Part shown: piece by piece, positions 3,805 to 58,627 of the stretch
How positions within the stretch are numbered: the stretch's first letter is position 1
How the letters are laid out: the number at the start of each line of letters is the position of its first letter
DNA from: an uncultured bacterium
GTDB lineage: Bacteria > Patescibacteriota > Minisyncoccia > Phycocordibacterales > PALSA-1337
Assembly: GCA_963848635.1 (NCBI GenBank)
Contig: CAWKEA010000005.1
Span: forward strand, 352,585-416,584
DNA length: 64,000 bases
Direction: 5' to 3'
Notes under the pieces: model-generated
Database searches by the model: none
What the model was told of the DNA's origin: nothing
The model's input: the letters and a program-made list of their open reading frames with translations, nothing else
Translations under genes and position numbers: made by a program

Positions 3805-4011
3805 TTATATCTTGCCAGCAATTAGAGTTTTTGCGATGGATACTGATATCGGCTGTTTTGTCATTGCCTCAATCCATGCCCATTGACCATTGCAATTGAT
3901 TTCCAAGAATACCAACTGGTTTTCTGGAGTAACAATTGCATCTATAGTTGCAAAATTCAGATTCATTTTTCTGGCGAGTCGAAGGCACTTTTTCTTAACT
4001 GATGGACTCAA
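3805..4011 (-). pseudogene. ATP-grasp enzyme C-terminal fragment
   Basis: 68 aa ORF LNFATIDAIVTPENQLVFLEINCNGQWAWIE resembles the C-terminal strand region of RimK/glutathione-synthetase-type ATP-grasp domains; no N-terminal part present. Confidence 0.35.
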
Positions 4012-12706: not shown

Positions 12707-12796
12707 GATTGAAACTGAGCGTCATAATTTATTGATAACTCAATAATCGATCAAGGCGTTCCCCTCATATCAGTCCTCATTAGTATATCATTTATA

Positions 12797-13951: not shown

Positions 13952-14088
13952 TGGTGTTTTGTGTTTCATCTTACAGATCGAAATAAGTAAAAACAGATGA
14001 GTCTTTTATCTAATTCTATACATAACTAAAAAACATTCTCATTTCGTTATTATTTATGACTCTGGAAAGTATTCAATAAGGTGTATAA

Positions 14089-15774: not shown

Positions 15775-15779
15775 ACAAG
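15709..15779 (+). repeat. direct repeat copy A (histidine-kinase 3' terminus)
   Basis: about 85% identical to 18552..18622 (encodes RGKGKGALVVISLPLKQTFGE-stop). Confidence 0.7.
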
Positions 15780-15803
15780 TCGCGGCCATCCTCAATTTTT
15801 ATA

Positions 15804-16514: not shown

Positions 16515-17730
16515 AATATAAAAATCTTAACTCATTCAAAAAAGACTTCTCATTTGGATGAATAGATCTATTTGGTAATTTATTTTCTAATAATTTTATT
16601 ATCATAACCATTTTATCATAAGCTATACCATAATAAAAATTATTTATAGCTTCAAGTAATTCCTTTTTAAGCTCTACAAAGCTAGCGGATAAAGGCGAAA
16701 ATAGCTCATATTTTAAAATAGTATCTATTCTCTCTCTTAATATCTCCTGCTCCTTAAGACTATTTTTAATAGTTTCAAAATTAATAATGACATCTTTTGA
16801 AACATTTCTTTTAAGGAAAAAAGATCGCAGATAACTTGGGGACAGTTCATTGAATAAGTTTGTCACCTCTTCGATATTGTTTTGCCACTTAAATTTTCTA
16901 CCATATTTATCAAGAAGAACACCATGACACACAATGTTAGTAGGAAGAAATTTGCTTGGCAAATGACATAAAGAATAATAGCTGAATTTCTTTATTATAT
17001 CACCATGAAAATATATTCTTTTAGAATACGTGCCTTGAACAAGGGCCGGAGTAAGCATAACTATGAAGCGAGGATCCAAACTATAACCATCATACGTAAT
17101 CGTATATTCTCTATTCTTAGTAAGACAGATATTATATTTTTCAGGCATCAGGTTACAAAATGTGACCAATTCTTTTTTAGCTCCAATTGGATAGATTTTT
17201 ATTCTTGATATTGTTTCCAGAATTTCATTTTTTGATATTTTTTGGTAGATAACGTTTTGATCTTTCATATCAACACTTCCGCCACATATTTTACACAAGG
17301 TAATCGTTACGTCTGTACCAAAATCAGAATTACATTTATTGCAAGTCGCAATTGGGATTGATCCTTTTATAATATTTGACTTGCAATGCATATTAACGAA
17401 ATCGGAAAGAATTGTGCTTATTTTATCATCTCTGATTTGTTCGTCAAAATCTATACAATATTTTTTTAATGCTTTAACGCCTTCTTGTATGCATTTATCA
17501 ACGAATTCTTCTCTCGTAGTTTTCGAGACAATTATGTTTTCCCTTTGCATCATTTTCAAAACTGGTAACCCATTTACATTCCAAAGCAATGGGAGACAAA
17601 CTTTTATATCCTGGAAGCGTCGTGATTTTACATAAAAATCCATCAGGATTAAATCGTAAATATTGCCCGGACTCAGTACTTTTTTCACTTGTACTGGAGC
17701 CATTATGACTATTTCATTTTCTAGTTCCAT
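16486..17730 (-). CDS. methionyl-tRNA synthetase catalytic-core paralog with degenerate HIGH and KMSKS motifs (predicted pseudo-aaRS)
   Basis: colinear with the MetRS core: N-terminal block IVIMAPVQVKKVLSPGNIYDLILMDFYVKSRRFQDIKVCLPLLWNVNGLP versus [51 protein letters not shown] (HIGH replaced by PGNIY); zinc knuckle CNKCNS...CKICGG; YFHGDIIKKFSYYSLCHLP versus HFIGKDIVYFHSLFWPAML; KMSKS replaced by KFKWQ; C-terminal anticodon-binding region truncated. Confidence 0.55.
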   Translation of the reverse strand: MELENEIVIMAPVQVKKVLSPGNIYDLILMDFYVKSRRFQDIKVCLPLLWNVNGLPVLKMMQRENIIVSKTTREEFVDKCIQEGVKALKKYCIDFDEQIRDDKISTILSDFVNMHCKSNIIKGSIPIATCNKCNSDFGTDVTITLCKICGGSVDMKDQNVIYQKISKNEILETISRIKIYPIGAKKELVTFCNLMPEKYNICLTKNREYTITYDGYSLDPRFIVMLTPALVQGTYSKRIYFHGDIIKKFSYYSLCHLPSKFLPTNIVCHGVLLDKYGRKFKWQNNIEEVTNLFNELSPSYLRSFFLKRNVSKDVIINFETIKNSLKEQEILRERIDTILKYELFSPLSASFVELKKELLEAINNFYYGIAYDKMVMIIKLLENKLPNRSIHPNEKSFLNELRFLYFGQYYGIKD

Positions 17731-18547
17731 ATATTTTTCTGTATTCTTTAGTTATGGACAACTGCAATTCAGAAAGAAAATTATATGCCATACTAAGACC
17801 TGACATTGTAATGTCATTAGTATGTTCAGATTTGTATTCCAAAAATATGCTTGGATCAATTTTCTGAGGAAACATCTTATGAAAAGTCTGCGAAGCTTCT
17901 TTTCTTGTTTCTGGATATATCTTCCAAAATGCTAGATAATACATGACACCATAAATGCACCATTTCATCATTGTGATTCGTTTTTTTGCATTCAGATCAC
18001 TGTTTACGAGCAGCTTCCGAGCTTGATACGTCAAGGAGCTAATAACTCTTACCACTTCAAGACGCAGATCATCGAGATTAATGTTTTTATTTTCAAATGA
18101 ATTTTTTCCAATCAATTGTCTACCATACATAGACAACTCAATCTGCATGTATAAAGATCTGTTGTTATGCCAAAAAGTTTCTTTTCTTCTCTTGGGCGTT
18201 TCATTATACGTATGAACATTAAAATCTAAATCAAAACCACTCGAATCGTATTTTTCTTTGATTTTCCTTAATATTTTTAATGATTCATTGTCAGCGATTT
18301 TGAGAACTATTAGTATGTCTATATCACTTAGAAAGCAATAATCATCAGACAATGAGCTTCCGTAAACAACAGCGCTTACAATATTTTCTTTCAACAACTT
18401 TTTAAGATGAATTTTTATCGGCAATAATATATTCTCCCTCTCTTCTAAACTATGCATATTAGTATTATACATATAAAAATCTAACTTGCTATTTGCACAA
18501 TCAACAAGCACATTTTCAATTTTTAAGACATTTCCTTTTTTGATCAT
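17714..18547 (-). CDS. Pol-beta superfamily nucleotidyltransferase with C-terminal helical domain (AadA/ANT-like architecture)
   Basis: VVYGSSLSDDYCFLSDIDILIV matches the hG[GS]x9-13Dh[DE]h NTase motif; likely start at MIKKGN (18547), since the listed ORF start overlaps the kinase 3' remnant. Confidence 0.55.
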   Translation of the reverse strand: MIKKGNVLKIENVLVDCANSKLDFYMYNTNMHSLEERENILLPIKIHLKKLLKENIVSAVVYGSSLSDDYCFLSDIDILIVLKIADNESLKILRKIKEKYDSSGFDLDFNVHTYNETPKRRKETFWHNNRSLYMQIELSMYGRQLIGKNSFENKNINLDDLRLEVVRVISSLTYQARKLLVNSDLNAKKRITMMKWCIYGVMYYLAFWKIYPETRKEASQTFHKMFPQKIDPSIFLEYKSEHTNDITMSGLSMAYNFLSELQLSITKEYRKIYGTRK

Positions 18548-18551
18548 GTCA

Positions 18552-18617
18552 CGTGGCAAGAAAAAAGGCGCGCTCACGACCATTTCCCTGCCCTTGAAAC
18601 AGGCGTTTGAGGAGTGA
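18552..18617 (+). pseudogene. histidine kinase 3' terminal remnant (direct repeat copy B)
   Basis: encodes RGKKKGALTTISLPLKQAFEE-stop, about 85% nt identity to the 3' end of the kinase gene at 15709..15779; no upstream kinase ORF. Confidence 0.6.
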
Positions 18618-18649
18618 GGACAAGAGAAAAGATACTCAAAACCGATTCC

Positions 18650-19102
18650 TTATAGGATCTCTTTTAACCCCGCCCTCTTCCTCCTCTTGTTGAGCTGAGA
18701 CGGGTCTTTTACTGGCCGAAGAACAGGTTTATTGTTTTTACCAAGTTTACCAGTGAACTGCGTGCCGTATAATTGTTTTTTGCCTTCATTCAGCAAAATC
18801 CTGTCTTCCAAATGTGCGGCATTCGATGGAGAGAAAACACACTTCTTGAAGCACTGCTTTTGAAGCGCCACATCTTGATCTTGGTGCTGTATAAGCAGCC
18901 AGAATTTATGCATATCCTTCACGCCTACATTCTTTGTGGTGGGGTATCCATGCTCACGTATCAACTCCTTTATTCTGTAGTTATGATAGCCGTCACAGAG
19001 ATACACCATATAGTTGAAAATACCGGCGCTTCCCTTCTGGGATTCTTGCATCTTTTTTTTCAGCGTGAAATCGCAAGGCTTGGTCGACCTGGTACATTTC
19101 AC
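18650..19102 (-). CDS. hypothetical protein, paralog of 3261..3737
   Basis: shares GTQ(F/Y) and (L/I)(R/L)PV(K/D) and RR...GLKE blocks with ORF 3261..3737. Confidence 0.4.
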   Translation of the reverse strand: MKCTRSTKPCDFTLKKKMQESQKGSAGIFNYMVYLCDGYHNYRIKELIREHGYPTTKNVGVKDMHKFWLLIQHQDQDVALQKQCFKKCVFSPSNAAHLEDRILLNEGKKQLYGTQFTGKLGKNNKPVLRPVKDPSQLNKRRKRAGLKEIL

Positions 19103-19237
19103 TGATTATATTCGATATGATTTTTGATTTCATGATATTAAAGTTAATTTGTCGATATTACCTTACCCCCCCATTTCATTTTAATAAAAATTATGCTATC
19201 AATTCACCAGACAATAAAGTAAATCTATCTAAATACT

Positions 19238-19630
19238 ATGACACATCGACAATTCGCCCTATTCCTATGCGGCCTGGTCGCGCCATCGCTCTACCAGCGC
19301 ATCAAATTCGCCCTTCATCGCAGATCATTCTATACCACACGACTTCGCGATATAAGCGGCCTCAATCTCCATCACGGCCATTGGGGGCTCCTATTCGTGT
19401 TCGTTTCGACATGGATGCTCGCCTTTGGCCTACACAGCATCGTCTCGATTGGCCTCGCGGGATTTGGCTGGGGGCTCATCCTCGACGAGATCGTGCCCCT
19501 CCTCAAGATGCCTTCTCCCGGCCGGGACATCGAGCTCGACGTCTATGCGCGATCGAGGAATGCGACTTTCGTCTTTATTTCGATAGTCATCATTCTTTCG
19601 ATCGTCATATTTGCTAACTTCTGCCGATAG
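19238..19630 (+). CDS. integral membrane protein, unknown function
   Basis: 130 aa with 3-4 hydrophobic helices; followed by a terminator. Confidence 0.4.
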   Translation: MTHRQFALFLCGLVAPSLYQRIKFALHRRSFYTTRLRDISGLNLHHGHWGLLFVFVSTWMLAFGLHSIVSIGLAGFGWGLILDEIVPLLKMPSPGRDIELDVYARSRNATFVFISIVIILSIVIFANFCR

Positions 19631-19649
19631 CACTTGCTTTCAATTCAAA

Positions 19650-19674
19650 GCACCGGAATGCCGGTGCTTTTTCT
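19650..19674 (+). terminator. rho-independent terminator
   Basis: GCACCGGAATGCCGGTGC hairpin followed by TTTTTC. Confidence 0.65.
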
Positions 19675-19684
19675 TATCCCTTTC

Positions 19685-20311
19685 TTATCCCTTGTCGCAT
19701 AATCCGACGATAGTATCGTAGAACAATGTCGTGGTCGCTTCTGGTAGCGCATCATAGCTCACATGGATTGGCTCCCCGACATGTATGGTTAGCCTCCTGC
19801 GCAAAAGACCCCTTTGACCGAGATGCACCGAAATTGGCAAAACTGGAGCGCCAGTTTGCGAAGCCAGCACTGCCGCACCAAGCTTGAAAGGAGCGACTTC
19901 GTGCTCGGACACGATCTTGCCTTCAGGATAGATGACGATGTTCTCGCCCTCGCTGATGAGCCGCTTTGCTTCCTCGAGATTCTTTTGCAGGCCTTGGCCG
20001 GGCACGACGATAAAAACGCCAAAAAGGCTATAAATAAAGGATATCACACCGATTTCAGAGAGAAAATTGAGCCACTTCCAATCAAACCTGTTTACGGCCA
20101 TGAATCGCAGGGGCAAGTGAGGCGTAGAAAAGCCGAGTATGAGGCGAAAGATGAAGCTGTCCGCAAAGCTGAAATGATTGGCGATGATGATGAACGGCCT
20201 GTTTACTTTTTTCAGATTCTCCCGATCGTTGATTTTGAGGCGAAAAAAGATATTAAAGTATGCATACGAGATGGGCCATGTCAGAAATTGCGAAACTTTC
20301 AATAGTTTCAT
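19685..20311 (-). CDS. plsC: 1-acyl-sn-glycerol-3-phosphate acyltransferase family protein
   Basis: HxxxxD acyltransferase motif IIIANHFSFADSF and IVIYPEGK motif. Confidence 0.75.
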   Translation of the reverse strand: MKLLKVSQFLTWPISYAYFNIFFRLKINDRENLKKVNRPFIIIANHFSFADSFIFRLILGFSTPHLPLRFMAVNRFDWKWLNFLSEIGVISFIYSLFGVFIVVPGQGLQKNLEEAKRLISEGENIVIYPEGKIVSEHEVAPFKLGAAVLASQTGAPVLPISVHLGQRGLLRRRLTIHVGEPIHVSYDALPEATTTLFYDTIVGLCDKG

Positions 20312-20368: not shown

Positions 20369-20959
20369 TTACTGCTTCTTTGCTTTTTCTACCGGAGCAT
20401 CGATGACTGCATTTTCTTTCTTGAGAGGAAAACCGAGGTATTCGAGAAGAGCGAGAGTATGATTCTTGTCTTTTGACGTCGTGACGATAGTAGCGGCAAG
20501 ACCAAAGACGTCTTTGAGGTCTTCATCTGCCGTCTCCGGGAAAATAGTGTGCTCTTTTATGCCGAGAGTATAATTGCCCATTTCATCGACAGTGCGAGTA
20601 AGCCCACGGAAGTCCTTGGTGCGCGGCAGTGCGATATGCACGAGGCGATCGAGAAAATCATACATCCTGGTTCCTCGCAATGTGATCTGATAGGCCAGAG
20701 GGTCTCCGGTGCGCGTCTTGTAGGTGGCGATCGATTTTTTGGCAGTGCGGGTGGCAGGCTTTTGGCCGGTTATGCGCGAAAGGCGCTCGGCAATGAGCTC
20801 TATCTTTCTCTTGTCTTTGGTCGAGCCGAAGCCGACGTTGACGACCACTTTTTCTATGCGCGGAGTCTGCATGGCGTTCTTGATATGCAAAGATTCCTTC
20901 AGGCTCGTGAAGGCATGGCCGGCTTTTTCTTTCATTGTTTCAAAAGTTTCTTTTTTCAT
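20369..20959 (-). CDS. rplE: 50S ribosomal protein L5
   Basis: MQTPRIEKVVVNVGFG and overall colinearity with uL5. Confidence 0.85.
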   Translation of the reverse strand: MKKETFETMKEKAGHAFTSLKESLHIKNAMQTPRIEKVVVNVGFGSTKDKRKIELIAERLSRITGQKPATRTAKKSIATYKTRTGDPLAYQITLRGTRMYDFLDRLVHIALPRTKDFRGLTRTVDEMGNYTLGIKEHTIFPETADEDLKDVFGLAATIVTTSKDKNHTLALLEYLGFPLKKENAVIDAPVEKAKKQ

Positions 20960-23974: not shown

Positions 23975-24328
23975 TTATTTCTTGTCGGCTGAAGCGGTCG
24001 TGGCGGCCTCTTTGGCGGATTTTGCGGCATTGACTTCAGCCTCCTTTGCCTTGAGCTCGATCTCCTTTTGCATCTTGCCTCCATGGCGGAGGAATTTCTT
24101 TGTAGGCGAAAATTCACCGAGGCGGTGTCCAACCATGTCCTCGGTGACCAAAACGTCGATATGCTGTTTGCCGTTGTATACGCCAAAAGTAAATCCGACC
24201 ATTTCAGGAGAAATGGCCGAGCGACGATACCACGTCTTGATTGACGCTGTCGTGGCGGCTTTTTTGCCGGCTATCTTCTTGAGAAGCCGTTCTTCGACGA
24301 ATATGCCTTTTTTGAGCGATCGTGCCAT
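23975..24328 (-). CDS. rpsS: 30S ribosomal protein S19
   Basis: [16 protein letters not shown]...[27 protein letters not shown]. Confidence 0.9.
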
Positions 24329-24437
24329 GAATTATAGATATTCTAGATAAAAAACGAGCTCGGACGAGCTTGCTTGCATCTTAACAGAGCCTTGATTTGA
24401 AGTCAATACATCGTGCTATACTGATGGTTAAACATCA

Positions 24438-25220
24438 ATGTCATCGATCACCCCAGAAGTCATGCAGGCTTTCCTTATCGCCCTCCTCATACTGCTCATA
24501 GGCTTTTCATTGTGGCGCAAACTGCACGAGAACGAATCCCTCAAATACGAGTTCATAACCATCATCACCCATAAATTCCGCACGCCGATGACGCATATCA
24601 AATGGATCCTGGCGGACTTGATCCAAAGCGAGACTGATCCATACCGCAAAGAGAGCCTGACAAAGCTCGAGAGGTCGAACGACGACTTGGTCCAGCTCGT
24701 CAGCGCCCTCATCGAGGTCACCGATACTCCAAAAAAAGGAAAGGCATCATACCAATTCGAACGCGTTAACCTCGTCGATCTGACCAGGGGCGTCTTCAAT
24801 CTTTTCGACCATTCTTTCAAAGAAAAGAACATATCGATCACGCTCGACTTCCGTACCGCGGACATATTCGTCAAAGTTGACCGTTCTCGATTGGAATTCG
24901 TCCTTTCGACCATCATCGAAAACGCCTCTATGTATACGTCCACAGGGCAGAAAGTATTGATCTCAGTCGGATCAAAATGGAGAAAGGCAATTGTAACAGT
25001 CGCGGATGAAGGCATAGGCATGAGCTCGCTCGACATGCACAATGTCGGCACGAAATTCTTTCGGGCAAAGACTGCGCGGGCAATGGACACCAGCGGGTTC
25101 GGGATCAATCTATATCTGGCCAGATCCATAATCAGGCGCCTCCATGGCAAGCTCGAGATCTATTCTGCGGGATTAAAGACTGGCTCGACATTCAAAGTTA
25201 TATTATCAAAAGTCACGTGA
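24438..25220 (+). CDS. sensor histidine kinase (single TM, HisKA, HATPase_c)
   Basis: H-box ITHKFRTPMTHIKW; C-terminal GFGINLYLARSIIRRLHG. Confidence 0.7.
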   Translation: MSSITPEVMQAFLIALLILLIGFSLWRKLHENESLKYEFITIITHKFRTPMTHIKWILADLIQSETDPYRKESLTKLERSNDDLVQLVSALIEVTDTPKKGKASYQFERVNLVDLTRGVFNLFDHSFKEKNISITLDFRTADIFVKVDRSRLEFVLSTIIENASMYTSTGQKVLISVGSKWRKAIVTVADEGIGMSSLDMHNVGTKFFRAKTARAMDTSGFGINLYLARSIIRRLHGKLEIYSAGLKTGSTFKVILSKVT

Positions 25221-25280
25221 AGGCACATTGACAAGAGCAAGCGGAAAAATAAAAATTAAATCGTTCAGTGATCGCGCCTC

Positions 25281-26580
25281 CTATTCATATCTCAAAGCCT
25301 CGATCGGGCTCTTTTTGCTCGCCTGCCGCGCGGGATAGCCGCCAAAGACGAGGCCAATGACTGCAGAGACAGTGATGCCGAGGATAGCGCCTGACCACGG
25401 AAAGACGAATTGCCAATTGATCGCAAGAGCATGCGAAAGGATAAAGGCGATCAGAAACGCGAGACCAGAGCCGAGCAGAATGCCGACGACACCGCCGATA
25501 ACAGTCAACAAAACCGCTTCGAGGAGGAATTGCGATAGAATGTCGCGATTTTTCGCACCGAGCGCCTTGCGCAAACCGATCTCGCGCGTGCGCTCGGTCA
25601 CGGAGACGAGCATGATATTCATGATGCCGACGCCGCCGACGAACAATGCGATAGAGGCGACTGCAACGAGGAACCATGTGAGCGCCGAGGTGATCGTGCC
25701 GAGAGTATTGGCCAAACTTTGCTGCGTCTCGACAGTGAAGTCATCCTTTGTCGGATCGGTTATGCCGTGCGACTCCTCGAGAGTCAATTTTATATTAGCG
25801 GCAGTGACCGGGACAGTCTGGTCGGATGATGCTTGGGTTATGACGCGATTGTAATACTTTTGGCCCGTGACGTACGTCATGGCTGTCGTGTATGGCATGA
25901 TGACCATCGAGTCAAAGTCGAACAATGTGCCCCCGCCTGATTTCGGCAGCACAGCGACGACGCGAAAATTTCGTCCCTTTATCGTTATGTTCTGATTATA
26001 CGGATCCTGATTCTCAAACAGATAATTCGCTACATCAGCTCCAATGACGACGACGCTCGACATAGAATCGACATCGCTCTGGTCAAAGAACTGCCCTTCC
26101 GAAGGAGTGATGTTGAAAATGCTGGCCATGAGGTCAGTGCCGCCGAATATTGTGACCTGGTAAGTGTTCGGGCCATATGAAGCGGCGTCAGAGCCGATGA
26201 CCACAGGCATGATGGATATGAGGTCGGGCACATTTGCTTTGCTCATGAGAGCGGTCACATCCTTTGGCTTCAGCGAGTCGCTGTAGAGCGCAGAGGCGCC
26301 TGCTCGACGGGCTCGTGGATACTTGGCCCGGAATGATGGCGATAGTGTTCGTGCCGAGGCCCTGGACCTCGCCAAGAATAAGGTTCTGCGCGCCCGCCCC
26401 GAGCGACACGACCAACATGATGGCCGTGATGCCGATGACGATGCCGAGGATGGTCAAAATCGACCGCGAACGGTTCGTGCGCAGGCCGGTGAATGAGGTT
26501 TTAAATAAATGGCGGATGGTCATGGTTTTATTGTGTAAGCAACTTGAAAGCAGTATTAAATGCTTCATCGGCAGTTTCAA
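25281..26580 (-). CDS. ABC transporter permease, FtsX/MacB family (frameshifted near 26330)
   Basis: N-terminal TM plus periplasmic domain in ORF 26188..26580 continues in ORF 25281..26375 after IIPG; C-terminal four-helix FtsX domain. Confidence 0.7.
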
Positions 26581-26600
26581 ATGTTTGATATCCGTACTTA

Positions 26601-27098
26601 TCAGCTCTCTTCTTTATAACGCGGCCGTTCGACATTAAAGAAAGAGTTTGCTTCCATTTCTTGCAAATGACGGGTGTTGCCCCATCGTGGATCTTCAATA
26701 TTGCGCTTTAGTATGTCTTCGTACGACTTACCAAGAAGCACAATGCCCGGAAAATCTAAATCTTTCTTGGCAAGATGAGGTAACAGGTTAACGCATTCAA
26801 AAATTACTGGCATTTTCTCTTCTTTAAATGAATTTATTTTTTCAAGGAAAACCGGCCACAAACCTTCTGATTGCAAGACGATATTATTCCATTGCTTGTC
26901 CTTGCTGGTTTCAGTGTAGTATTTTTCCTCATTCTTATCCAAGAAAAAGTTGACCCATTTCCCGTACCTACCATCTGAAGCCAACGATTCTCTGAAATCA
27001 TCGAGAGAAACGATAATGCCGCCTGTCTTTTTAGCAAGTTTTTTTGCGAGATATGATTTGCCCGAAGCTGGAATTCCTGTGATAAATAGTTTATTCAT
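26601..27098 (-). CDS. P-loop NTPase/kinase-like protein
   Basis: Walker A GIPASGKSYLA at N-terminus; 165 aa. Confidence 0.5.
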   Translation of the reverse strand: MNKLFITGIPASGKSYLAKKLAKKTGGIIVSLDDFRESLASDGRYGKWVNFFLDKNEEKYYTETSKDKQWNNIVLQSEGLWPVFLEKINSFKEEKMPVIFECVNLLPHLAKKDLDFPGIVLLGKSYEDILKRNIEDPRWGNTRHLQEMEANSFFNVERPRYKEES

Positions 27099-27146
27099 AA
27101 TATTAAATTTGAGTTATACACAATGTCGTCTTGAATCATGCTATAC

Positions 27147-28091
27147 TTAATCCATCTGGGCTCCCGCAGATGCGGGACTCAGAGAGTTGCCCAGCAAAGA
27201 CGGTTGCTTCTCGTGATAATGCTGAGCTATTCTCTTGGTCCTACCCGATAAACCTGGTATGTACTTTTTGACAGCGACTATGTTGATTTCATTATAGTGC
27301 CTTCTGTTCAAGGTTTTGTGAATGCCTTTAAACGATATCGAGTTCTTTAGCTGTGCGCTAATTTGCTTCGTACCTTTCTTGTTTTGAAGAAAATATAGAT
27401 TACAAGTATAGGCAATTATATCAGCCAATTCCAATCCAGCAGATAGGACCTCTTTGTTGGCAAAAGATATAGATACTACAGATTTCTTTAAAGACTTAGC
27501 CAAGCTTACTAAATGTTTATTCTTGAAAGAATTTCTATCTGCAACCAAGTTATAGTTCCTAATAGTAAAAGGGTCGCCTGCCCTGCTTTCAAAAACAATT
27601 TTTAATCTTCCATTATTTTTTAATTCCCTCACAGCCCAGTGATAAAGGGCATTAACACCAACATCCAAAGGAAGTTGGTTATCGACTCGGGAATAAAATC
27701 TCTTTGTAGCAATCCAACTGTCTCCTTTATCAGGATATTTTTTGAAAGACAAACATCTTCTGACTAAATCTTTTGGCACACAAACCGCAAGATAGGTGAC
27801 GTTGTATCCTTTTATCAAATCCCATATTTCCTCTTGAAACTTTTTTCTTAAATCTTTTTTACTTCTTTTACGTGTAGTGCCTAAATAGCTTTCTGTATAA
27901 TCATTCTCAAATATATCTACCGCATGTATATGTTCATCCGGAGATAAATTATACTTTTCTTTCAATCTTTTGATCAAAAAAAGGAAATTCCCTTCATTAA
28001 CTTCGTCAATCAAAACACCACAAACAATGGTAAATTTGTCCTTCGAAGAAAGTTCTGGCGTTCCTGATTCATCTATATACAATATTTTCAT
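27147..28091 (-). CDS. DUF3800 domain protein
   Basis: N-terminal MKILYIDESG signature typical of DUF3800; 314 aa. Confidence 0.5.
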   Translation of the reverse strand: MKILYIDESGTPELSSKDKFTIVCGVLIDEVNEGNFLFLIKRLKEKYNLSPDEHIHAVDIFENDYTESYLGTTRKRSKKDLRKKFQEEIWDLIKGYNVTYLAVCVPKDLVRRCLSFKKYPDKGDSWIATKRFYSRVDNQLPLDVGVNALYHWAVRELKNNGRLKIVFESRAGDPFTIRNYNLVADRNSFKNKHLVSLAKSLKKSVVSISFANKEVLSAGLELADIIAYTCNLYFLQNKKGTKQISAQLKNSISFKGIHKTLNRRHYNEINIVAVKKYIPGLSGRTKRIAQHYHEKQPSLLGNSLSPASAGAQMD

Positions 28092-28147
28092 AAATTTTTA
28101 TTTCACCCAGTAGGCGACTCAATAGAGTCGTGTTCTGGACTAAATTG

Positions 28148-28876
28148 CTATTTCACATATTCCGCATCCGCGGAAAGCCTATTTTTTACCTTCACATCGC
28201 TGTCGATCGCGCCGTCCATAAGGCGGATGATGCGCTCGGAATGCTCGGCTGTGGCCGTTTCGTGCGTGATGAGAACGATCGTCTTGCCCTCTTTTTCATT
28301 TAATTTTTGAAGGATGGACATGATATTCTTGCCGGATTTACTATCGAGATTACCCGTCGGCTCGTCAGCGAAAATCACGTCCGGGTCAGTGACGAGGGCA
28401 CGCGCGATTGCCACGCGCTGCCGTTCGCCGCCGGAGAGCTCGCTCTGGTCATGGTTGAGTCGGTTGCCGAGGCCGACCGATTCGATCGCCTTCGTGGCTC
28501 GCTCGTTCCATTCATGTTCGGGAATATTGTCAGAATAGACGAGCGGCAATTTTACGTTCTCGAGCACGCTCGTGCGGGCGAGGAGATTGAAAGCCTGAAA
28601 GACAAAGCCGAGCTTTTGGTTGCGCAGATACGCCAATTCGTTCGAGTCATACGAAGTGATATTCTTGCCGTCAAAATGATATGTGCCAGACGTCGGCGTA
28701 TCGAGGAGGCCAAGGAGGTGGAGCAATGTCGATTTGCCAGAGCCTGACGGCCCCATGATGGCCATGAATTCGCCTTTGCGCACATTAAAGGTCACTCCGG
28801 CCAATGCGACTGTCGCCTCGCTGCCGTCGCTGTACGACTTCCTCAGATTTTTAACTTCTATTATGTTTTCTGCCAT
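28148..28876 (-). CDS. ABC transporter ATP-binding protein (MacB/LolD-type)
   Basis: Walker [10 protein letters not shown], signature [15 protein letters not shown], Walker [13 protein letters not shown]. Confidence 0.85.
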
Positions 28877-28885
28877 TGAAAAATG

Positions 28886-30431
28886 TTAGGAACCAATATA
28901 CGTCACCACTTTGTCTCCAGGCTTCAAGCCAGAGAGGATCTGCACTGAGCCATCGGAGCCTTTGAGGCCTGTCGTGACGGGAACGCTTGAATACATCAGA
29001 CCATTCGTGGAGACGAGCCGTACATCGGTTGATGTTGAAGTGATCAAGAGCGCACGATACGGGATCTCGAGGACATTATCTGTCTCGTGGGTCAATATCT
29101 CGATATTCGAGGTCATGCCGCTCTTTATACGGCTGTCCGGAGAGATGAATTGGAGGGTGACCTTGTATGTCGGTACGCCCTCGAGAACGGTTTCGGCAGG
29201 ATCGATCATGACCACCTTCTCTGGGAAGTTAACGTATGCGCCGTATGCATCGAGCGTGCTCGACGCTAGGTCTCCGACAGCCACCTTGGCGATGTCAGCC
29301 TCGGCGACGTATGCCTCGACTTTGAATCCGCTATTCTGCACTGCAAAGCCGCTCTGCCCCGGCGCCACATATTCGCCGACATTAGGGTCTTCTTGCGTGA
29401 CGATGCCGTCGATAGGCGAAACGAGAGTATCTTCCGCGAGGACAGCTTGCACCTGCGCGACTTTTGCAGCCTGGGCGGCGATCGCATTTGGAGTCGATCC
29501 GGATTGCTGGAGCGTGAAGGTGTTTTCCGCCTGTGCATATCCAGATTCAGCGCTCTTTAATTCCGTATCAGCCGCAGAGATCGTACCGATCGCCTGGTTC
29601 AAAGGTAGAAAGAGATGTATTCATGGTCGCCACGGCAGAATCGATAGCGGATTGCGGTAGACCAGAGTTGCCAGGGCTCAGATTGTTCACAATGACAGAA
29701 AGATCGGTCAAGTAGCTCTTGATAGTCGATAGATATCCTTTCGCATTAGAGATGAGCTGGCTCGTATTGGTCGCATCTGCGTTGCTTGAATCGATCTGCC
29801 AGTCATCGAGCACGGTTGCGATCTGCAAACGTTCGTTATTTATGGAAAGCGAGATAGTGTTCGATTGTGTGCGCACATTTATCGTCGGATTTGCAGTCTG
29901 TGGATTGGTAAAGAAGGTATCGCCATAGTTCACGACAGCACTTTGTGCCTGCACATAGCCGGTATGTATGGCATTTACCGCATCAGATAGGGCGTTTGCA
30001 AGGCTTGTGGAAGCTGAACCGACGGCAGATTGATCTGCGGCGTATTGTGCCGACGTAAGGCCGCTCGACATATCGGCGAGAGTCGCTTGTGCCGATGCGA
30101 CCGCCGCTTGGTCGTCGGCGCTGTCGAGAGATGCGATGGGATCGCCTGCCTTGACTGTATCGCCGACATTGACGTAGATCTTTGAGATGACGCCCCCTTT
30201 TTCAAAGGCGAGCGCGGCAGACGAGACCGGCGAGACAGTGCCAGTGACGCTGACCTGCTCAACCACGTTGCCGATCTGTGCAGTCGCATACTGGAAATTC
30301 GGCTTCTTCGGCTTTTCTTTTTCATAGACGATACCAGCGATGATGAGAACGATGACGATGCTCATGATGACCCATTTGTTTTTCAAGTGACGGAAGTGCG
30401 ATTTTTTCATATGCAAAATTATAACATACAA
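28886..30431 (-). CDS. HlyD/MacA-like periplasmic adaptor (membrane fusion protein), frameshifted near 29570-29600
   Basis: N-terminal TM and coiled-coil in ORF 29568..30431; beta-barrel/lipoyl-like C-terminal half in ORF 28886..29602; ORFs overlap 35 nt. Confidence 0.65.
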
Positions 30432-30517
30432 GCCGTTAGCCGACTATTTTTATTTCACTTTTTTAGGCAAAGAAAAAGCCGGGCTGGATCGCGCCAGCGC
30501 GGCTGTGACTGATAATT

Positions 30518-31804
30518 TTAGAACTTGAGGACGTGCTCCGGACCGGAGAGCTCGGTATAGCGATGCGCGAGATCCTCCTGCGTCTCGCCATGACCGATAC
30601 GAATGACACTGCCGTCTTCGCAAAGCATCAACTCTTGCGGCCGTAGGCGGCCATTATAGTTGAAACCCATAGCTATCCCGTGCGCGCCAGTATCATGCGT
30701 GACGACGAAGTCTCCTCTGTAAGCAGTCGGCAGTGGCATGTTGCGCGCCAATACGTCGCATCCTTCGCAGATAGGCCCAGCGACAGTTTGCGGCTTGATG
30801 TCAGCGGTCCGTTCGACGCCCGAGGGATCGAGTATCGTGCAATGGTGGTATGCGCTCGGATAGATTCCTACTCGCATGAGACCTGGCATCGCAGTCGGCA
30901 CACCGATGAAATCGCCATATTTGCGATAGATATTGATAACGGGATTCACGAATACGCCGTGAGGACCCGTTATGTACCTGCCGCTTTCGGCGAATAGCTT
31001 TGGCGTGTAGCCATACGTGCGGGCGAACTGATCCAATATCGACCTGCATCCGATCGCATAGCTATCAAGATCGAACTCAGATTCATTCAAACGATATGGG
31101 ATGCCGAAACCGCCGCCGACGTCGATGAATTCGAGGGAAATCTTGAGACGATTACTGATTCCACCTCCAACCTCAGCCAAGAGGTTTAAGCTCTTCAACA
31201 GATTCAAGTAGTCCAGATCGTTAGAAAAGAACATACCGTGGATACCGAACCTCTTTACGCCGCGATCCTTTGCCCGGCTGACGAGTGCCATCATCTGCTC
31301 GAGAGGCACGCCATATTTCGAGCTCGTGTCGATCTTGCCGCCGCCCTGGGACGGATTCCTGTCGCCTGAGTTAAGCCGGAAACAAAGAAGCTCGGGAAGC
31401 GGACCAGAAAGTTCGCCCAGAAAGATCTCGTCATCGAGATTGATGATCGATCCACCCTCGGAAAGCGCTTCTTGGAATTCCTCAGACGACGTGTCGTTCG
31501 ATGTAAAGATGATGTATTCAGGCCGAGCGCCCGCGTCACGCGCTAAGTCCAATTCACGGATCGAGCTACAGTCAAAACCACAGCCTTCGCTCTTGATTAT
31601 GTCCATGATGGCCGGATTCGGAAGGGCCTTGACCGCAAAGAACTCCTGAAAAAGGATTTCCCTTTGCGAAAATGCATGCTTAAACCGTCGTATGGTCTCC
31701 CGTATCCCTCTTTCATCATATATATGGAAGGTCGGCCCGAATCTTTCGGCTATTGCCGGCAGTTTCGGAAAAAGACGCTGTTTGAAGCTTTCTGACATCG
31801 GCAT
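30518..31804 (-). CDS. PLP-dependent Orn/DAP/Arg decarboxylase family protein (putative diaminopimelate decarboxylase)
   Basis: FIDVGGGFGIPY, ESGRYITG and GPICEGCDV motifs of fold-III decarboxylases. Confidence 0.65.
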   Translation of the reverse strand: MPMSESFKQRLFPKLPAIAERFGPTFHIYDERGIRETIRRFKHAFSQREILFQEFFAVKALPNPAIMDIIKSEGCGFDCSSIRELDLARDAGARPEYIIFTSNDTSSEEFQEALSEGGSIINLDDEIFLGELSGPLPELLCFRLNSGDRNPSQGGGKIDTSSKYGVPLEQMMALVSRAKDRGVKRFGIHGMFFSNDLDYLNLLKSLNLLAEVGGGISNRLKISLEFIDVGGGFGIPYRLNESEFDLDSYAIGCRSILDQFARTYGYTPKLFAESGRYITGPHGVFVNPVINIYRKYGDFIGVPTAMPGLMRVGIYPSAYHHCTILDPSGVERTADIKPQTVAGPICEGCDVLARNMPLPTAYRGDFVVTHDTGAHGIAMGFNYNGRLRPQELMLCEDGSVIRIGHGETQEDLAHRYTELSGPEHVLKF

Positions 31805-32063
31805 ACTATCTCCTTCGTTGTTTGTTGTTGTGCAGTATTGGTTGTAAAAGACCGACTCAAAGACTGCTTTTTTGCTTTGTGTCTGAATCGAACATTACTC
31901 GTAAGTATCAATGATGTCAAGGTGAACGAGTTGACAGAACTACTTTTACGCGCTAAAAAGGACTTAGAATTATCGCACAATCGCCGTTCCGAAAGGAATG
32001 GCTTTTTATTTCAAGAAAAAACCGCCGAGCTTGTGAAAGCCCGGCGATATGAGATTACGTAAT

Positions 32064-33437
32064 TCAGAATTCCAATTTGGTTTCCTTGAGCCTGCGAACG
32101 ACTTCGGCGATGACCGACCCATGGTCCGGCAGACCATATTCCGGCTGAGGAAATATCGTCACAGCCCAACGCAACCACGCATTGCCCGAGATCGTCACTG
32201 GCATGAGCGAGATACGCTTGTGCTGTCGGAGCCAAATAGTGCACTCGGTCGCATTCGAAAAGACGACGCCATCGGCCGATACGGGTGCTTTGGTCAGAAG
32301 GCACAGCCCTGCCTCAGGCATAGAGGCTCCAAATCCAGTTTCCGCAAGCCCCGCGATCAAGCCGCCGTGCAACTCATAATAATGGTTGCGCATGCTCACC
32401 GCAAACTCGGGATTCTTGAGGCACCAGAGCATTGAAGCGATGCTCGGTCCAAAGCCGCCGGAATCCTTTACATCAGTGATCTTGCGGATGGCCTTGATGA
32501 GGGTCGGGTGAGCGATCATCCATCCCATGCGCAATCCCGTGGCATTCCAACCCTTGCTCACGCTCTGCAAAACGATGCAACAGTGCTCCCAACCGGCAAT
32601 ATCGAGAACGCTCACGCTATCGTTATAGCGCAGATGGGTATATGCCTCGTCGACGACGACGATGACGTCGTTTTTCGTCGCCCACGCGATGAGGTTATCC
32701 CAGTCCGATAACGAGAACGTCGTACCAGTCGGGTTATGCGGGATGTTGAGATACAGCACTGTTCTCCTTAACCCGGCCGACGCCGATGCTTCAACGAGGT
32801 AGGTCATCCTACCGTAGTCGATATAGTAACGTCCACCAGACAAGACGAGAGGTATGTCCTCTATCTTCGCTTGCAAGCTATTTATATCGCTCTTCACGAC
32901 GGCGTAGCTCGGATTCGGGAAGAGCAGGAGCGTTTCGCCATCGAGCAGTAATGATGGTATGTATTCAGCCAGCGCCCGTTTGATCGAACCGGGAGAATAT
33001 TGGACCCAGTCTGGGGTGAATACCACATCTGAATAAGGGTGCATCATGTTCAAGAAATCAGCGATGGCTTCATGCGTGCCAGGGATGCCGTTATTGTCGG
33101 TATAGCGCGTCGCCTGAGGGTTCGAGCTATAATATTCCATCGCCGCTTCCATCGCCTCGAGAGGCATCTTTACCGTAGGATCGGCGACTGACAGGCAACA
33201 AAGCGCAGAAGAGGGATTACTAGGGATGCTTTGCATGGCCAACTCCCGCTCTGCGCTAAGAACCGCACTGAATGAATATCCCGTGCCTGGCTTGTCGAAT
33301 TCGGCGCCACCATAACGAGAAAGCATGTGCCGCCGCCAGAATGTATCAAGATCTGACATAATATGTTTAAGTTTTAAGTCAATGAACTGCATGGGTTCTG
33401 AGACCGATATGCGCCGGAAGAACCCGTTCCGAAGCAC
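32064..33437 (-). CDS. class I/II PLP-dependent aminotransferase (possibly LL-diaminopimelate aminotransferase-like)
   Basis: NPTG and SKGWNATGLRMGW lysine-motif region; true start probably an internal Met. Confidence 0.6.
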   Translation of the reverse strand: MLRNGFFRRISVSEPMQFIDLKLKHIMSDLDTFWRRHMLSRYGGAEFDKPGTGYSFSAVLSAERELAMQSIPSNPSSALCCLSVADPTVKMPLEAMEAAMEYYSSNPQATRYTDNNGIPGTHEAIADFLNMMHPYSDVVFTPDWVQYSPGSIKRALAEYIPSLLLDGETLLLFPNPSYAVVKSDINSLQAKIEDIPLVLSGGRYYIDYGRMTYLVEASASAGLRRTVLYLNIPHNPTGTTFSLSDWDNLIAWATKNDVIVVVDEAYTHLRYNDSVSVLDIAGWEHCCIVLQSVSKGWNATGLRMGWMIAHPTLIKAIRKITDVKDSGGFGPSIASMLWCLKNPEFAVSMRNHYYELHGGLIAGLAETGFGASMPEAGLCLLTKAPVSADGVVFSNATECTIWLRQHKRISLMPVTISGNAWLRWAVTIFPQPEYGLPDHGSVIAEVVRRLKETKLEF

Positions 33438-33551
33438 TTTCTGAACATCACCCTACAAAATATCCGATATAATGTCAAGAAAAACACGGGTCTTTGCCCG
33501 TGCCGTTCTTTTGTAAAAAATTTTGAATCGTTCAAACCGGCCTCCCTCTTC

Positions 33552-34400
33552 CTACTCTGCCTTCTTCTTGCCGACTTGTCTGCGCGAGACGATGAAGATG
33601 TTCGAGTATTTCTTTGGGGTGCGGGTCTTTTGACCCTTGCCGGCAGGCTTGCCCCAACGGGTCTTCAGACGGCGTAGACCGCGTCCGGTGCGTTGCTCGC
33701 CTCCGCCATACGGATGGTCCACAGGATTTTGAGCCGAGCCGCGGACTGTCGGACGGATGCCCATCCAGCGCGACCGTCCCGCTTTGCCGATAGTGACCAA
33801 ACGATTTTCGTCATTCGACACAGCGCCGATAGAAGCCCATGCAGTATCGATGATCTTGCGGATCTCGGTCGAGGGCATTTTTATGTGCGTATAGCCGGCG
33901 TCATTGGCGATGACTTGGGCAAAAGAACCAGCAGAACGGACGAGACGTGCACCCCCTTTTGGCTTTATTTCTATGTTGTATATAAAAGAGCCGACGGGAA
34001 TATTGCGGAGAGGCAGGCGATTTCCCGAAGAGATCTCCGCTTTTTCCGAGACGAGGAGCTGTGAGCCGACTTTGACGTCTTTTGGAAGGAGCACGTAGCG
34101 CCTTTCACCGTCAGTGAACTGAACAAGACCGATAAAGCCTGTGCGGAAGGGGTCATATTCGACAGTCTTCACGATAGCAGGCATGTCTTTTTTATCATAT
34201 TTGAAATCGACGAGGCGATAGAGCTTCTTATGACCGCCGCCCTGGTGGCGCACCGTGATACGGCCTTGGTTGTTTCGAGCGGCATCGCGCTTGAATCCGA
34301 CGGTCAACGGCTTGTAAGGCTTCCGAAACCGTCACATGATCCTTGAACGAGATCGTGGTCATATGCCGGCGCGATTTTGTGAATGGTGGGTAGTGTTTCA
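33552..34400 (-). CDS. rplB: 50S ribosomal protein L2 (frameshift near 34310 separates the first ~28 codons)
   Basis: N-terminus MKHYPPFTKSRRHMTTISFKDHVTVSEA read from 34400; remainder YKPLTVGFKRDAARNNQGRITVRHQGGGHK... in ORF 33552..34307. Confidence 0.85.
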
Positions 34401-37965: not shown

Positions 37966-38113
37966 GATATTTTTGTTAGTGCTTTTTTATCATATTTCAG
38001 GCCAGACGGCCAAAAAATAGAACAAAAAAGATAATCGTGTAAAAAATTACTTGTTAAAGGTAGGCCTCTTTTGAGCAAAGGCATACTTAGCCAACGCAAA
38101 ATGCGTACTGGGC

Positions 38114-38142
38114 ATACTAGCAAATGGGCGTTCAGGTGTCAA
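38114..38142 (-). promoter_or_regulatory. candidate sigma70-type promoter for the tuf/S10 operon
   Basis: minus strand TTGACA-17nt-TAGTAT about 140 nt upstream of tuf. Confidence 0.4.
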
Positions 38143-38248
38143 ATTTTACAGCCATTTAATATTTTAGTAATAAAATAGCTACATCAAGTCCAAATTATGT
38201 TGATTGACAAGTTAATACATTTAAACCATCATTTGTATATCTAATAAT

Positions 38249-39287
38249 ATGTCGTTCAAGATATCATACCAAATAAAAGATAAAGACATCAGAAATCTAG
38301 AACTTATATCTAAAACTGATGGGTATTTACAAGTATTAAGAATGAACCCCGTATGGTCAACTTTGCTCGAAAAAGAAGCTAGGATAACGGAAGCGGTAAG
38401 TTCCATCGGAATAGAAGGAACGATAATTTCCATTGAGCAAGCAAACGCAATCACTGTTGGTGAAGAAAACGTACATGTTGGGGAAAAGGAAAAGAGAGAA
38501 TTTCTCGGCTATTATGAGTCATTAAACTATATTAGAGGTGAAATCGATAGCCCACTAACACTGCAATTACTCCTTAAAATCCATGGAAAGATTACAGCTG
38601 GTGATCCAAAAGCTTCTCCTGGCAAAATAAGAACTGATTTGAGGGCTGTCGCAAAAGATGGAAAAGTCATATACAAAGCACCTCCACCAGAACACCTCAG
38701 TTTTCTTTTAAGAAGCTTCATTGAATGGTTCAATAATACCGCTTCAGACAAGGCTATTTCACCAGTTATAGCGGCTGCAATATGTCATTTTTGGTTTGTA
38801 TGGATACATCCATTCTGTGATGGTAACGGGAAGAGTTGGAAGATTACTTACAACGTTTCTACTATTGAAAAAGAAGTCTGAGGGAGTTAAATATTTTGCT
38901 CTCTCAAATGATTACAATAAGGAAAAAGATGGATATTATGACTCTTTAAAAAAGACTAACGTATGCGATCCAGAGGTTCCATCAATGAATTTTGACAACG
39001 ACTTATCACTCTGGATAACTTATTTTATATATTCATACTTAGTTCAGATGGAAGATATAAAAGAGGTTACAAATCGGATATTACAATTGAATATAAAAAT
39101 TGAACATCTCAGAGAGGATGGCTTAATTACTTCAACTCACAACAAAGCACTCGCATTTTTATCATCAAGAAAAAAGACATCTTACCAAGAATTTGAAGGG
39201 GCACTTAAAATTTTCTGCTCCGAGAGTAAATCAAATATTAAAACCCCTCCGCTCAGCACGTATACTTGTCGAGGAACAGATAGGTAA
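38249..39287 (+). CDS. Fic/Doc family protein (frameshift inside the Fic motif near 38845)
   Basis: HPFCDGNG in ORF 38249..38881 continues as RVGRLLTTFLLLKKK in ORF 38796..39287, together forming HPFxDGNGRxxR. Confidence 0.65.
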
Positions 39288-52845: not shown

Positions 52846-52937
52846 TGGGGATAAGTGTCCATTGACAAAATAAGCTTTGAATGCTAAGCTTTCCGCAGAA
52901 CGTGCAGGTAGTGAACCAATAAATTTGAAAGGAAAAT

Positions 52938-58618: not shown

Positions 58619-58627
58619 GAACGTATT

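Follow-up and report, generated by a model that had tools for sequence, protein, structure and literature searches.

In the E. coli-type S10 operon, the genes from rpsJ to rpsQ are carried on one transcript with L4-mediated attenuation in its leader. An uncultured member of Patescibacteria (candidate phyla radiation, CPR) shares this gene order but not its contiguity: in the 64,000-nucleotide stretch analyzed here (hereafter the window; contig CAWKEA010000005.1, positions 352,585 to 416,584, of assembly GCA_963848635.1), a 9.2 kb island of non-ribosomal genes lies between rplB and rpsS. The locus further differs from the E. coli-type operon in having predicted promoters 5' of rpsS and, in insert-bearing loci, of rplD, as well as a predicted terminator 3' of rplB.

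Hypervariable region 2 (HVR2) of SAR11, located between the 23S and 5S rRNA genes, is a hypervariable, surface-related region (PMC2217521). The rplB|rpsS junction resembles it in having conserved translation-machinery flanks, variable content, no bounding mobile-element genes and a streamlined host. The cargo is likewise rich in surface and envelope functions, comprising an exporter, class A penicillin-binding protein (PBP1) with alpha-2-macroglobulin (A2M), VanY, peptidoglycan (PG)-binding proteins, a pilin-like protein, glycosyltransferases and an ABC-2 exporter. However, the present site lies between two S10 ribosomal-protein genes rather than rRNA genes, is smaller (0.6 to >18 kb), belongs to Patescibacteria and coincides with a conserved internal promoter and a terminator, both predicted. 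Insertions into the conserved translation super-cluster have been described for Gammaproteobacteria and Bacilli, mostly between operons and following an 'invasion-separation' pattern (PMC8046335). The similarities are that few genes are inserted, that the sites lie at operon boundaries and that later loss or full separation is possible; the cluster in the window is also broken after rplE. By contrast, the site described here is internal to the classical S10 operon, recurrent in the clade (30/66 species) and multi-allelic. Among flexible-genome hotspots, the unusual trait of this one is its position inside the classical S10 operon, at a conserved predicted promoter; it is not a new kind of system.

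The interpretation that we favour, with a probability of roughly 0.75, is that the S10 string has been re-cut at rplB|rpsS into separate units, that this junction is the main hotspot of the clade and that the 9.2 kb island is a mosaic. For this clade (Patescibacteria/CPR, Paceibacteria/Taylorbacteria-like), we predict a classical S10 string divided among separate transcription units. One of the cuts would be rplB|rpsS, where an intrinsic terminator would end the rplB unit and a strong extended -10 promoter would start rpsS. The downstream ribosomal genes would then be independent of read-through, and for this reason the boundary would tolerate extra DNA; such permissiveness may be what made it the main flexible-gene hotspot of the cluster. 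The island would combine three old modules, namely an aminotransferase with a LysA-like decarboxylase, a MacA/ABC/FtsX exporter and a one-helix histidine kinase devoid of a sensor domain, with one recent foreign cassette (DUF3800 and P-loop genes) dropped between the exporter ATPase and permease genes. Vertical descent with the flanks would account for the exporter and, probably, the kinase, and cassettes such as the aminotransferase/decarboxylase pair would have been swapped between lineages. Homologous recombination anchored in the highly conserved ribosomal genes would be the most economical route of exchange, because there is no integrase, transposase, tRNA or flanking repeat.

Ribosomal-protein strings serve as the most stable markers of synteny and phylogeny, above all when CPR genomes are binned and placed. 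With the S10 string routinely interrupted at one junction, its contiguity cannot be assumed in marker extraction or scaffold checks. The locus also suggests that a 'forbidden' site can become a hotspot once internal promoters split the operon, and that tiny genomes may store part of their scarce envelope-related accessory genes beside ultra-conserved genes, where homologous recombination can swap them. It offers a concrete place to follow gene flux and surface variation in uncultured Patescibacteria.

Variable gene content between rplB and rpsS in relatives

To define the junction in related genomes, we scanned with rplB of the window, taking one genome per species, and obtained 80 loci (designated by L numbers) at 76-94% rplB identity; an exact look-up of the rplB protein gave no match. 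All are metagenome-assembled genomes of Patescibacteria. They carry the labels Taylorbacteria, Paceibacterota or Parcubacteria, with Saccharibacteria used in some third-party assemblies. Proteins of the window were placed in these loci by tblastn, open reading frames (ORFs) in the gaps were clustered, and the rplB|rpsS gap was measured in the 66 loci holding both genes. Further relatives, L087 and L088, were reached through a search with the repaired FtsX protein of the window.

The gap between rplB and rpsS exceeds 300 bp in 30 of the 66 loci and 1 kb in 27. At the 13 other junctions from tuf to rplE, gaps of this kind (>300 bp) are confined to rplC|rplD (6/68), rplP|rpmC (2/59) and tuf|rpsJ (1/62), the remaining ten having none; a second variable junction in the relatives is rplE|rpsZ-rpsH. 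The preliminary description of this DNA had envisaged that relatives might uniformly share the arrangement, which would make it an ancestral lineage trait, but the gap is ≤300 bp in 36 of the 66 loci. In the species tree, constructed by neighbour-joining from eleven concatenated translation proteins, three groups could be distinguished: a large clade in which the rplB|rpsS gap is almost always short, a small clade of the window, L001 and L002 with MacA directly 3' of rplB, and a second large clade whose members almost all have an insert, the antisense kinase being the commonest.

Clustering of the gap ORFs gave more than 70 clusters, mostly singletons. Recurrent content includes MacA-ABC-FtsX (about ten loci), the one-helix kinase, usually antisense (21 loci), and the aminotransferase and decarboxylase together with a small antisense gene, c7 (five loci). 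These modules are combined differently across the relatives: some loci have the kinase only, some the exporter with or without the kinase, some aminotransferase-c7-decarboxylase, and others several recurrent small families or many other genes. The recurrent small families c4, c7, c9, c11 and c12 have no match in Pfam. Singleton cargo recognized by Pfam includes alpha-2-macroglobulin with a class A PBP, an alginate-lyase/PG-binding protein, VanY, a pilin-like protein, GH130, a DEAD-box helicase, a methyltransferase and a 23S-IVS protein; envelope-related functions prevail among the identified singletons. Accordingly, rplB|rpsS is a flexible-genome hotspot, in which the same flanks enclose varying content, variation is concentrated at this junction, and the evidence points to replacement or exchange rather than loss alone. 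A full-text literature search returned no account of a hotspot at rplB|rpsS, nor of any in the ribosomal cluster of Patescibacteria, which is weak evidence given the limited collection searched.

Several individual loci illustrate the range of content. In L061 (11040-19184) the junction is filled by a classic gene pair encoding a 2089-amino acid bacterial alpha-2-macroglobulin and a class A penicillin-binding protein. In L087 (2595-20745) and L088 the island past rplB runs for more than 18 kb without reaching rpsS, and 3' of FtsX it encodes a 1162-amino acid fn3 protein, an ABC-2 exporter pair and four glycosyltransferases. In L058 (3501-7567) and L070 (2092-5738) the same MacA-ABC-FtsX cassette is found at rplC|rplD instead, and the kinase stays at rplB|rpsS.

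Organization of the island

In the window, rplB (34307-33552) and rpsS (24328-23975), both on the minus strand, are separated by 9223 bp (24329-33551), as determined from the ORF list and Pfam matches. Reading along the minus strand, Pfam identifies tuf, rpsJ (36767-36366), rplC, rplD, rplW and rplB before the island, and rpsS, rplV, rpsC, rplP, rpmC, rpsQ, rplN, rplX and rplE after it. Thus, the canonical S10 order rpsJ-rplC-rplD-rplW-rplB-rpsS-rplV-rpsC-rplP-rpmC-rpsQ is retained, with contiguity lost at the 9223 bp gap. The features of the junction, in the direction of transcription of the ribosomal genes, are as follows.

33552..34307, minus strand: rplB (uL2), final gene of the predicted upstream ribosomal unit (Pfam Ribosomal_L2_N, Ribosomal_L2_C)
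33483..33504, minus strand: terminator-like hairpin and U-run, 48 nt past the rplB stop codon (-17 kcal/mol, z = -5.2)
32064..33437, minus strand: class I/II aminotransferase, start codon uncertain (Pfam Aminotran_1_2)
32021..32048, minus strand: predicted strong intrinsic terminator with U-run, 3' of the aminotransferase gene (-18.9 kcal/mol, z = -7.0)
31983..32002, opposite strand: terminator-like hairpin adjoining the aminotransferase terminator
31892..31920, minus strand: weak promoter-like site TTGACA-17-TAATGT, 5' of the decarboxylase gene (read from the sequence)
30518..31804, minus strand: fold-III pyridoxal phosphate-dependent decarboxylase, LysA-like (Pfam Orn_Arg_deC_N, Orn_DAP_Arg_deC)
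28886..30431, minus strand: MacA/HlyD-type adaptor, in two overlapping ORFs, 30431-29568 and 29602-28886 (Pfam HlyD_3/HlyD_D23, NCBIfam)
28148..28876, minus strand: MacB/LolD-type ABC ATPase (Pfam ABC_tran; best NCBIfam matches LolD and MacB)
26533..28147, minus strand: apparent nested insertion with DUF3800 (27147-28091) and AAA_33-like P-loop protein (26601-27098) genes (Pfam, composition, comparison with L090)
25281..26523, minus strand: MacB-type permease (MacB_PCD and FtsX in Pfam); the ORF spans 26375-25281, with homology from 26523
24438..25220, plus strand: minimal histidine kinase, antisense to the ribosomal genes (Pfam HisKA, HATPase_c)
24378..24406, minus strand: predicted rpsS promoter TTGACT-N17(TGT)-TAAGAT, of the extended -10 type (motif scan)
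24349..24370, minus strand: conserved leader element, AGCUC-GUCC-GAGCU hairpin followed by a U-run (alignment of 32 distinct leaders)
23975..24328, minus strand: rpsS (uS19), opening gene of the predicted downstream ribosomal unit (Pfam Ribosomal_S19)

The preliminary description had rplB-rpsS adjacency broken by about 9 kb of non-ribosomal genes, and the Pfam order bears this out; its gene identities were also right by Pfam, and the arrangement is indeed unusual when set against bacteria in general. Its count of nine genes corresponds to nine ORFs but eight genes, since the adaptor is frameshifted, and its gene list was not in positional order. The span that it gave, 24438-33437, has the starts of the kinase and aminotransferase genes as its two ends; the whole stretch separating rplB from rpsS is the longer one given above. 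As it also stated, most of the inserted genes are co-oriented with the ribosomal genes, namely eight of the nine ORFs.

The core genes of the island, for the aminotransferase, decarboxylase, exporter and kinase, have GC content of 0.49-0.55, GC at third codon positions (GC3) of 0.58-0.66 and codon usage matching that of the ribosomal genes. This comparison of the insert with the flanks, in which codon usage was a check proposed in the preliminary description, singles out DUF3800 and the P-loop gene alone as deviating. None of the nine ORFs encodes an integrase, recombinase or transposase by Pfam, NCBIfam or PADLOC. A search for att sites, target duplications and flanking or terminal inverted repeats around both the 9 kb block and the DUF3800 insert produced only short, chance-level repeats. 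There is no tRNA at the island, the nearest tRNA genes being at 51.7 and 56.8 kb of the window. An integrative mobile element or classical genomic island was therefore rejected, there being no integrase, no att repeats or tRNA, and a core of native composition.

A predicted boundary between transcription units

Promoter motifs were counted as TTGAC-N16-18-TAnnnT within 150 nt 5' of each gene. The motif precedes rpsS in 61 of 66 loci, rplD in 56 of 73 and tuf in 29 of 57; for twelve other ribosomal genes the count is 0-2. Loci that have no insert but a spacer of about 40-280 bp also carry the rpsS promoter, in the near-consensus form TTGACT-N16-17(TG)-TAGTAT, and in no-insert loci it often lies so near the ATG that the mRNA would be almost leaderless. 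The loci lacking the rpsS motif are four whose gaps measure 1-27 bp, and L068. An intergenic extended -10 promoter lies 5' of rplD in each of the six loci that have an rplC|rplD insert. In the window the extended -10 pattern has five matches against 0.35 expected, four of the five being just 5' of genes, and it seems to represent the strong-promoter type of this organism. Apart from the rpsS site, matches were found at 38114-38142 (minus strand), 52862-52890 (plus strand) and 62545-62572 (minus strand), just 5' of tuf and two other genes.

Terminator-like hairpins occur within 150 nt 3' of rplB in 25 of 80 loci, and after 13 of the 14 other genes scanned there are 0-7, the exception being rplE (22/51). 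Within the island of the window, the decarboxylase gene has an AAGGAG ribosome-binding site; the promoter-like site 5' of it scores under the motif-scan threshold and is a putative one. From these motifs the rplB|rpsS junction looks like a boundary between two transcription units. The signals suggest the units ...rplW-rplB; aminotransferase; decarboxylase-MacA-ABC-(DUF3800-P-loop)-FtsX; the antisense kinase; and promoter-rpsS..., if the predicted promoters and terminators act as such in vivo. Co-transcription of the insert with the ribosomal genes, thought probable in the preliminary description, is not supported, because hairpins of -17 and -18.9 kcal/mol follow rplB and the aminotransferase gene and the rpsS promoter is conserved (61/66).

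The leader hairpin (-6.3 kcal/mol) begins 8 nt past the -10 element of rpsS and is conserved in the 32 distinct leaders, which come from both major clades. No covariation was detected among these leaders: 93% of cells pair, and only U-A to U-G changes are seen. An Rfam search of the whole window at gathering thresholds yielded two tRNAs only, with no ribosomal leader and no match for the rpsS leader element, which could be an attenuator or a protein-binding site. A wider extrapolation, which we regard as rather unlikely in its entirety, is that the whole super-cluster has been re-cut into several promoter-driven units, with rplB|rpsS, rplE|rpsZ and, less often, rplC|rplD as the principal envelope-gene hotspots, whose cassettes would be recombined between species via the ribosomal genes, as a CPR counterpart of the SAR11 region. 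Under the same extrapolation, the GCUC-N4-GAGC hairpin with its U-run could be an undescribed autoregulatory attenuator of the rpsS-rplE unit.

Modules of the island

By Pfam the island encodes every part of a MacAB-type exporter: an HlyD-family adaptor, an ABC ATPase, and a permease in which the MacB periplasmic core domain is joined to FtsX helices. The NCBIfam scores against MacA and MacB stay under the equivalog cut-offs. Like MacAB (type VII) and Gram-positive YknXYZ-like exporters, the predicted system has the adaptor, a LolD/MacB-like ATPase and a MacB-core and FtsX permease in one gene row. Compared with MacAB-type exporters, ATPase and permease are on separate genes, and two of the three genes have a +1 frameshift in this assembly. 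A TolC-type partner would not be expected in this phylum. The family is abundant and conserved in Patescibacteria (3481 matches at E ≤ 1e-80). MacA/ABC/FtsX is found at the same junction in L001, L002, L087 and L088, with extra genes between MacA and ABC in L087 and L029. The ABC ATPase is 98% identical to that of L090 and 90-93% to those of L001 and L087. At the nucleotide level, the window and L001 are 77% identical in the ribosomal flanks and 74-79% in MacA/ABC/FtsX. Since its divergence equals that of the flanks and its composition is native, the exporter appears to be an old resident inherited with them.

The DUF3800 and P-loop genes are different. Their GC and GC3 are 0.36 and 0.34 (DUF3800) and 0.39 and 0.40 (P-loop gene), against about 0.53 and 0.6 in the neighbours. 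In L090, a spacer of 4 nt lies between the ABC stop codon and the FtsX ATG, and next to FtsX comes the antisense kinase gene, an order shared with the window; the ABC, FtsX and kinase proteins of the two loci are 98%, 97% and 70% identical, respectively. The extra 1.6 kb of the window (26533-28147) falls precisely into this spacer between ABC and FtsX, without duplication. The same sub-site in L001 holds other genes, for a 23S-IVS protein and a 107-amino acid ORF. At other loci, DUF3800 homologs adjoin the gene of a tyrosine integrase or of an HTH_17 protein and are often close to the end of a contig, which fits an accessory or mobile gene. From composition and the comparison with L090, DUF3800 and the P-loop gene look like a recent foreign insertion nested in the exporter, and they are the only part of the island that looks recent. 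In L083 (5052-6945) and L086 (2453-6948), DUF3800 homologs with 53-56% identity lie directly 3' of a tyrosine integrase or near an HTH_17 (excisionase-like) gene. PADLOC made no defence assignment for DUF3800, and its matches to the P-loop protein (VakA, E = 2e-6) and the kinase were weak, for which reason the segment was not taken for a defence island.

The aminotransferase and decarboxylase genes form a multi-allelic cassette. The aminotransferase of the window is 57-58% identical to those of L067 and L073 and 26-28% to those of L071, L080 and L087. Its decarboxylase is 53-54% identical to those of L071 and L080, 40% to those of L067 and L073 and 35% to that of L087. The window thus pairs an L067/L073-type aminotransferase with an L071/L080-type decarboxylase. 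Between L071 and L073 the flanks are 87-90% identical, whereas the cassettes are 67-73% identical or unalignable. L087 and L088 share the module order of the window and are 93% identical to it in both rplB and ABC/FtsX, but their aminotransferase and decarboxylase are only 26% and 35% identical; the L087 aminotransferase is truncated to 186 amino acids. These comparisons indicate at least three very divergent alleles of the cassette between near-identical flanks, and hence exchange: with flanks 87-93% identical and cassette proteins 26-35% identical or unalignable, replacement or exchange is needed and loss alone is insufficient.

In L067, L071, L073, L080 and L087 the two enzyme genes are separated by c7 (164-176 amino acids, antisense, without a Pfam match). 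The corresponding spacer of the window (31805-32063) is devoid of c7, yet keeps back-to-back terminators on both strands; probably, c7 was deleted and its terminator left behind. In L081, a decarboxylase-aminotransferase pair is found away from ribosomal genes, near murB and secA. This was the one locus recovered by a metagenome scan with the aminotransferase, which returned no closer relative of the window.

Biochemical functions of the two enzymes can be proposed from family matches. The best NCBIfam match of the aminotransferase is LL-diaminopimelate (LL-DAP) aminotransferase PRK06290, with 183.7 bits against a cut-off of 585, and that of the decarboxylase is lysA TIGR01048, with 223.8 bits against 297.9. 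A role in DAP/lysine synthesis is tentative, the balance tilting slightly against it. Otherwise the pair may serve in a related step that tailors amino acids or diamines, perhaps for the envelope, an idea prompted by the diversity of the alleles and by the glycosyltransferase and ABC-2 genes that lie nearby in L087.

The kinase has 7 amino acids outside the membrane and a single membrane helix, directly followed by the H-box (DHp and catalytic domains), with no sensor domain. HATPase_c is above the Pfam cut-off, and HisKA is sub-threshold (23.5 bits versus 26.9). Alignment with 20 homologs from the same junction revealed a conserved H-box, ITHKFRTPMT. Judging from this architecture, the protein must sense within the membrane or through a partner. 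The kinase gene adjoins the FtsX permease gene in five genomes (the window, L027, L041, L074 and L090), and in most relatives the kinase is present without the exporter. A tblastn search of the 64 kb window with CheY and PhoB detected no receiver domain or response regulator. Across 21 taxa the kinase tree is correlated with that of the ribosomal proteins (Spearman 0.63), and the kinase was probably inherited with the flanks. Intramembrane-sensing histidine kinases coupled to FtsX-type transporters are represented by BceS/BceAB, which serves here as a lead only. The window kinase resembles that system in being devoid of an extracellular sensor domain and in being encoded beside an FtsX-family permease. 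A Bce-type sensing module was nevertheless rejected: the permease of about 413 amino acids is of the 4-helix MacB type and not of the 10-helix BceB type, the kinase has one helix instead of two, and no regulator is encoded nearby. The window has three histidine kinase genes in all, at 9948-11546 (minus strand), 14089-15774 (plus strand) and 24438-25220 (plus strand), two of them with a seven-transmembrane N-terminal domain.

Alternative explanations

The interruption might be an artifact, and there is some reason for caution: the contig is metagenome-derived, and several single-base frameshifts in conserved genes point to an imperfect consensus. MacA has one extra base near 29601/29602 in alignment with L001, and forms a single intact frame in L001, L027 and L087. 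FtsX has one extra base near 26302/26303, evident from the frame change in tblastn and from DNA alignment with the L001 orthologue; the corrected protein is 97% identical to P0027. Sequence on both sides of either frameshift stays 80-97% identical to relatives. The polA gene (58619-61112, minus strand) is also split: its 5'-3' exonuclease ORF (60123-61112) overlaps the polymerase ORF (58837-60270) by 148 nt, and the latter breaks just before the catalytic QVHDE motif, which continues in another frame near 58783, owing either to assembly indel errors or to a genuinely fragmented polA. With polA frameshifted in the same window, the two +1 frameshifts in MacA and FtsX are more likely to be consensus indel errors than true inactivation, and are probably assembly errors; a search for an intact FtsX copy from the same organism returned only relatives at ≤97% identity. 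A chimera or mis-join at 24330-24440 and/or 33440-33550, a possibility raised in the preliminary description, is a different matter, because the joins recur in independent assemblies. The rplB-to-aminotransferase join is found in L067, L073, L087 and L088, which come from other samples, the decarboxylase-to-MacA join in L087 and L088, and the ABC-FtsX-antisense kinase join in L090. Antisense kinase or FtsX, then the promoter and rpsS, follow one another in many loci including L001, and a 1.7 kb Logan contig from run ERR10755936 is 100% identical over 26609-28337, reproducing ABC-DUF3800-P-loop. For practical purposes a mis-join is excluded.

In the preliminary description the 9 kb block was viewed as an insertion. 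A single recent horizontal insertion would be a mobile or foreign block that landed in a working S10 operon. In its favour, rplB and rpsS are as a rule adjacent in bacteria, the gap is short in 36 of 66 relatives, and the block is large and mostly co-oriented. Yet the core matches the ribosomal genes in GC, GC3 and codon usage, it is accompanied by neither an integrase nor a transposase, tRNA or flanking repeat, and MacA/ABC/FtsX lies at the corresponding position in L001, L002, L087 and L088, where it has diverged as much as the flanks. Moreover, the modules occur separately or recombined at the same junction in other relatives, and only the 1.6 kb DUF3800/P-loop segment behaves as recent, so that a single recent transfer is very improbable. 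A purely ancestral island (aminotransferase-c7-decarboxylase-MacA-ABC-FtsX-kinase) subject to differential loss, with no exchange, would account for the native composition, for the module order common to the window and L087/L088 and for kinase and exporter trees that broadly follow the ribosomal-protein tree. It is nonetheless improbable, as it leaves unexplained the aminotransferase and decarboxylase at 26-35% identity where rplB is 93% identical, cassettes unalignable between L071 and L073 despite 87-90% identical flanks, dozens of unrelated singleton cargos (A2M+PBP1, alginate lyase, VanY, DEAD helicase) and the low-GC nested insert. About equally improbable is a functional extension of the operon, in which the insert would be transcribed from the S10 promoter and exporter, kinase and amino-acid enzymes would be coupled to growth rate. 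The co-orientation of eight of nine ORFs and the short intergenic gaps agree with it, and intrinsic terminators are rarely 100% efficient. However, strong terminator hairpins lie 3' of rplB and the aminotransferase gene, rpsS has an independent conserved promoter, the kinase is antisense, and the content of the site changes between close relatives, unlike that of a conserved co-regulated unit.

The re-cut string with a mosaic island at its boundary is thus the interpretation that we retain, although several points weigh against it. The promoter and terminator are consensus-level predictions, and with eight of nine ORFs co-oriented, read-through is possible. The rpsS promoter could be a relic of ancient inserts instead of their precondition, and the rplD motif in tight loci sits within the rplC coding sequence and may be conserved for coding reasons. 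The window kinase nests inside the second clade and not as its sister, so that transfer of the kinase is possible. Finally, the counts refer to the best 80 of 364 relatives (species representatives), and the trees are neighbour-joining trees on short alignments, midpoint-rooted.

Other features of the window

The ribosomal cluster ends at rplE (20369-20959), with no further part of the spc operon in the window: rpsZ, rpsH, rplF, rpsE, rplO and secY are nowhere in the 64 kb. Past rplE, the region 12000-20311 encodes an acyltransferase, a plus-strand hypothetical gene, DUF6624, a Pol-beta-type nucleotidyltransferase and two overlapping low-GC ORFs (GC 0.30-0.32). Sharp low-GC islands (0.30-0.38, on a background of about 0.50) are present at 3000-4000, 12000-15000, 16000-19000, 27000-28000 and 38000-39000, which suggests several recent acquisitions besides the DUF3800 cassette.

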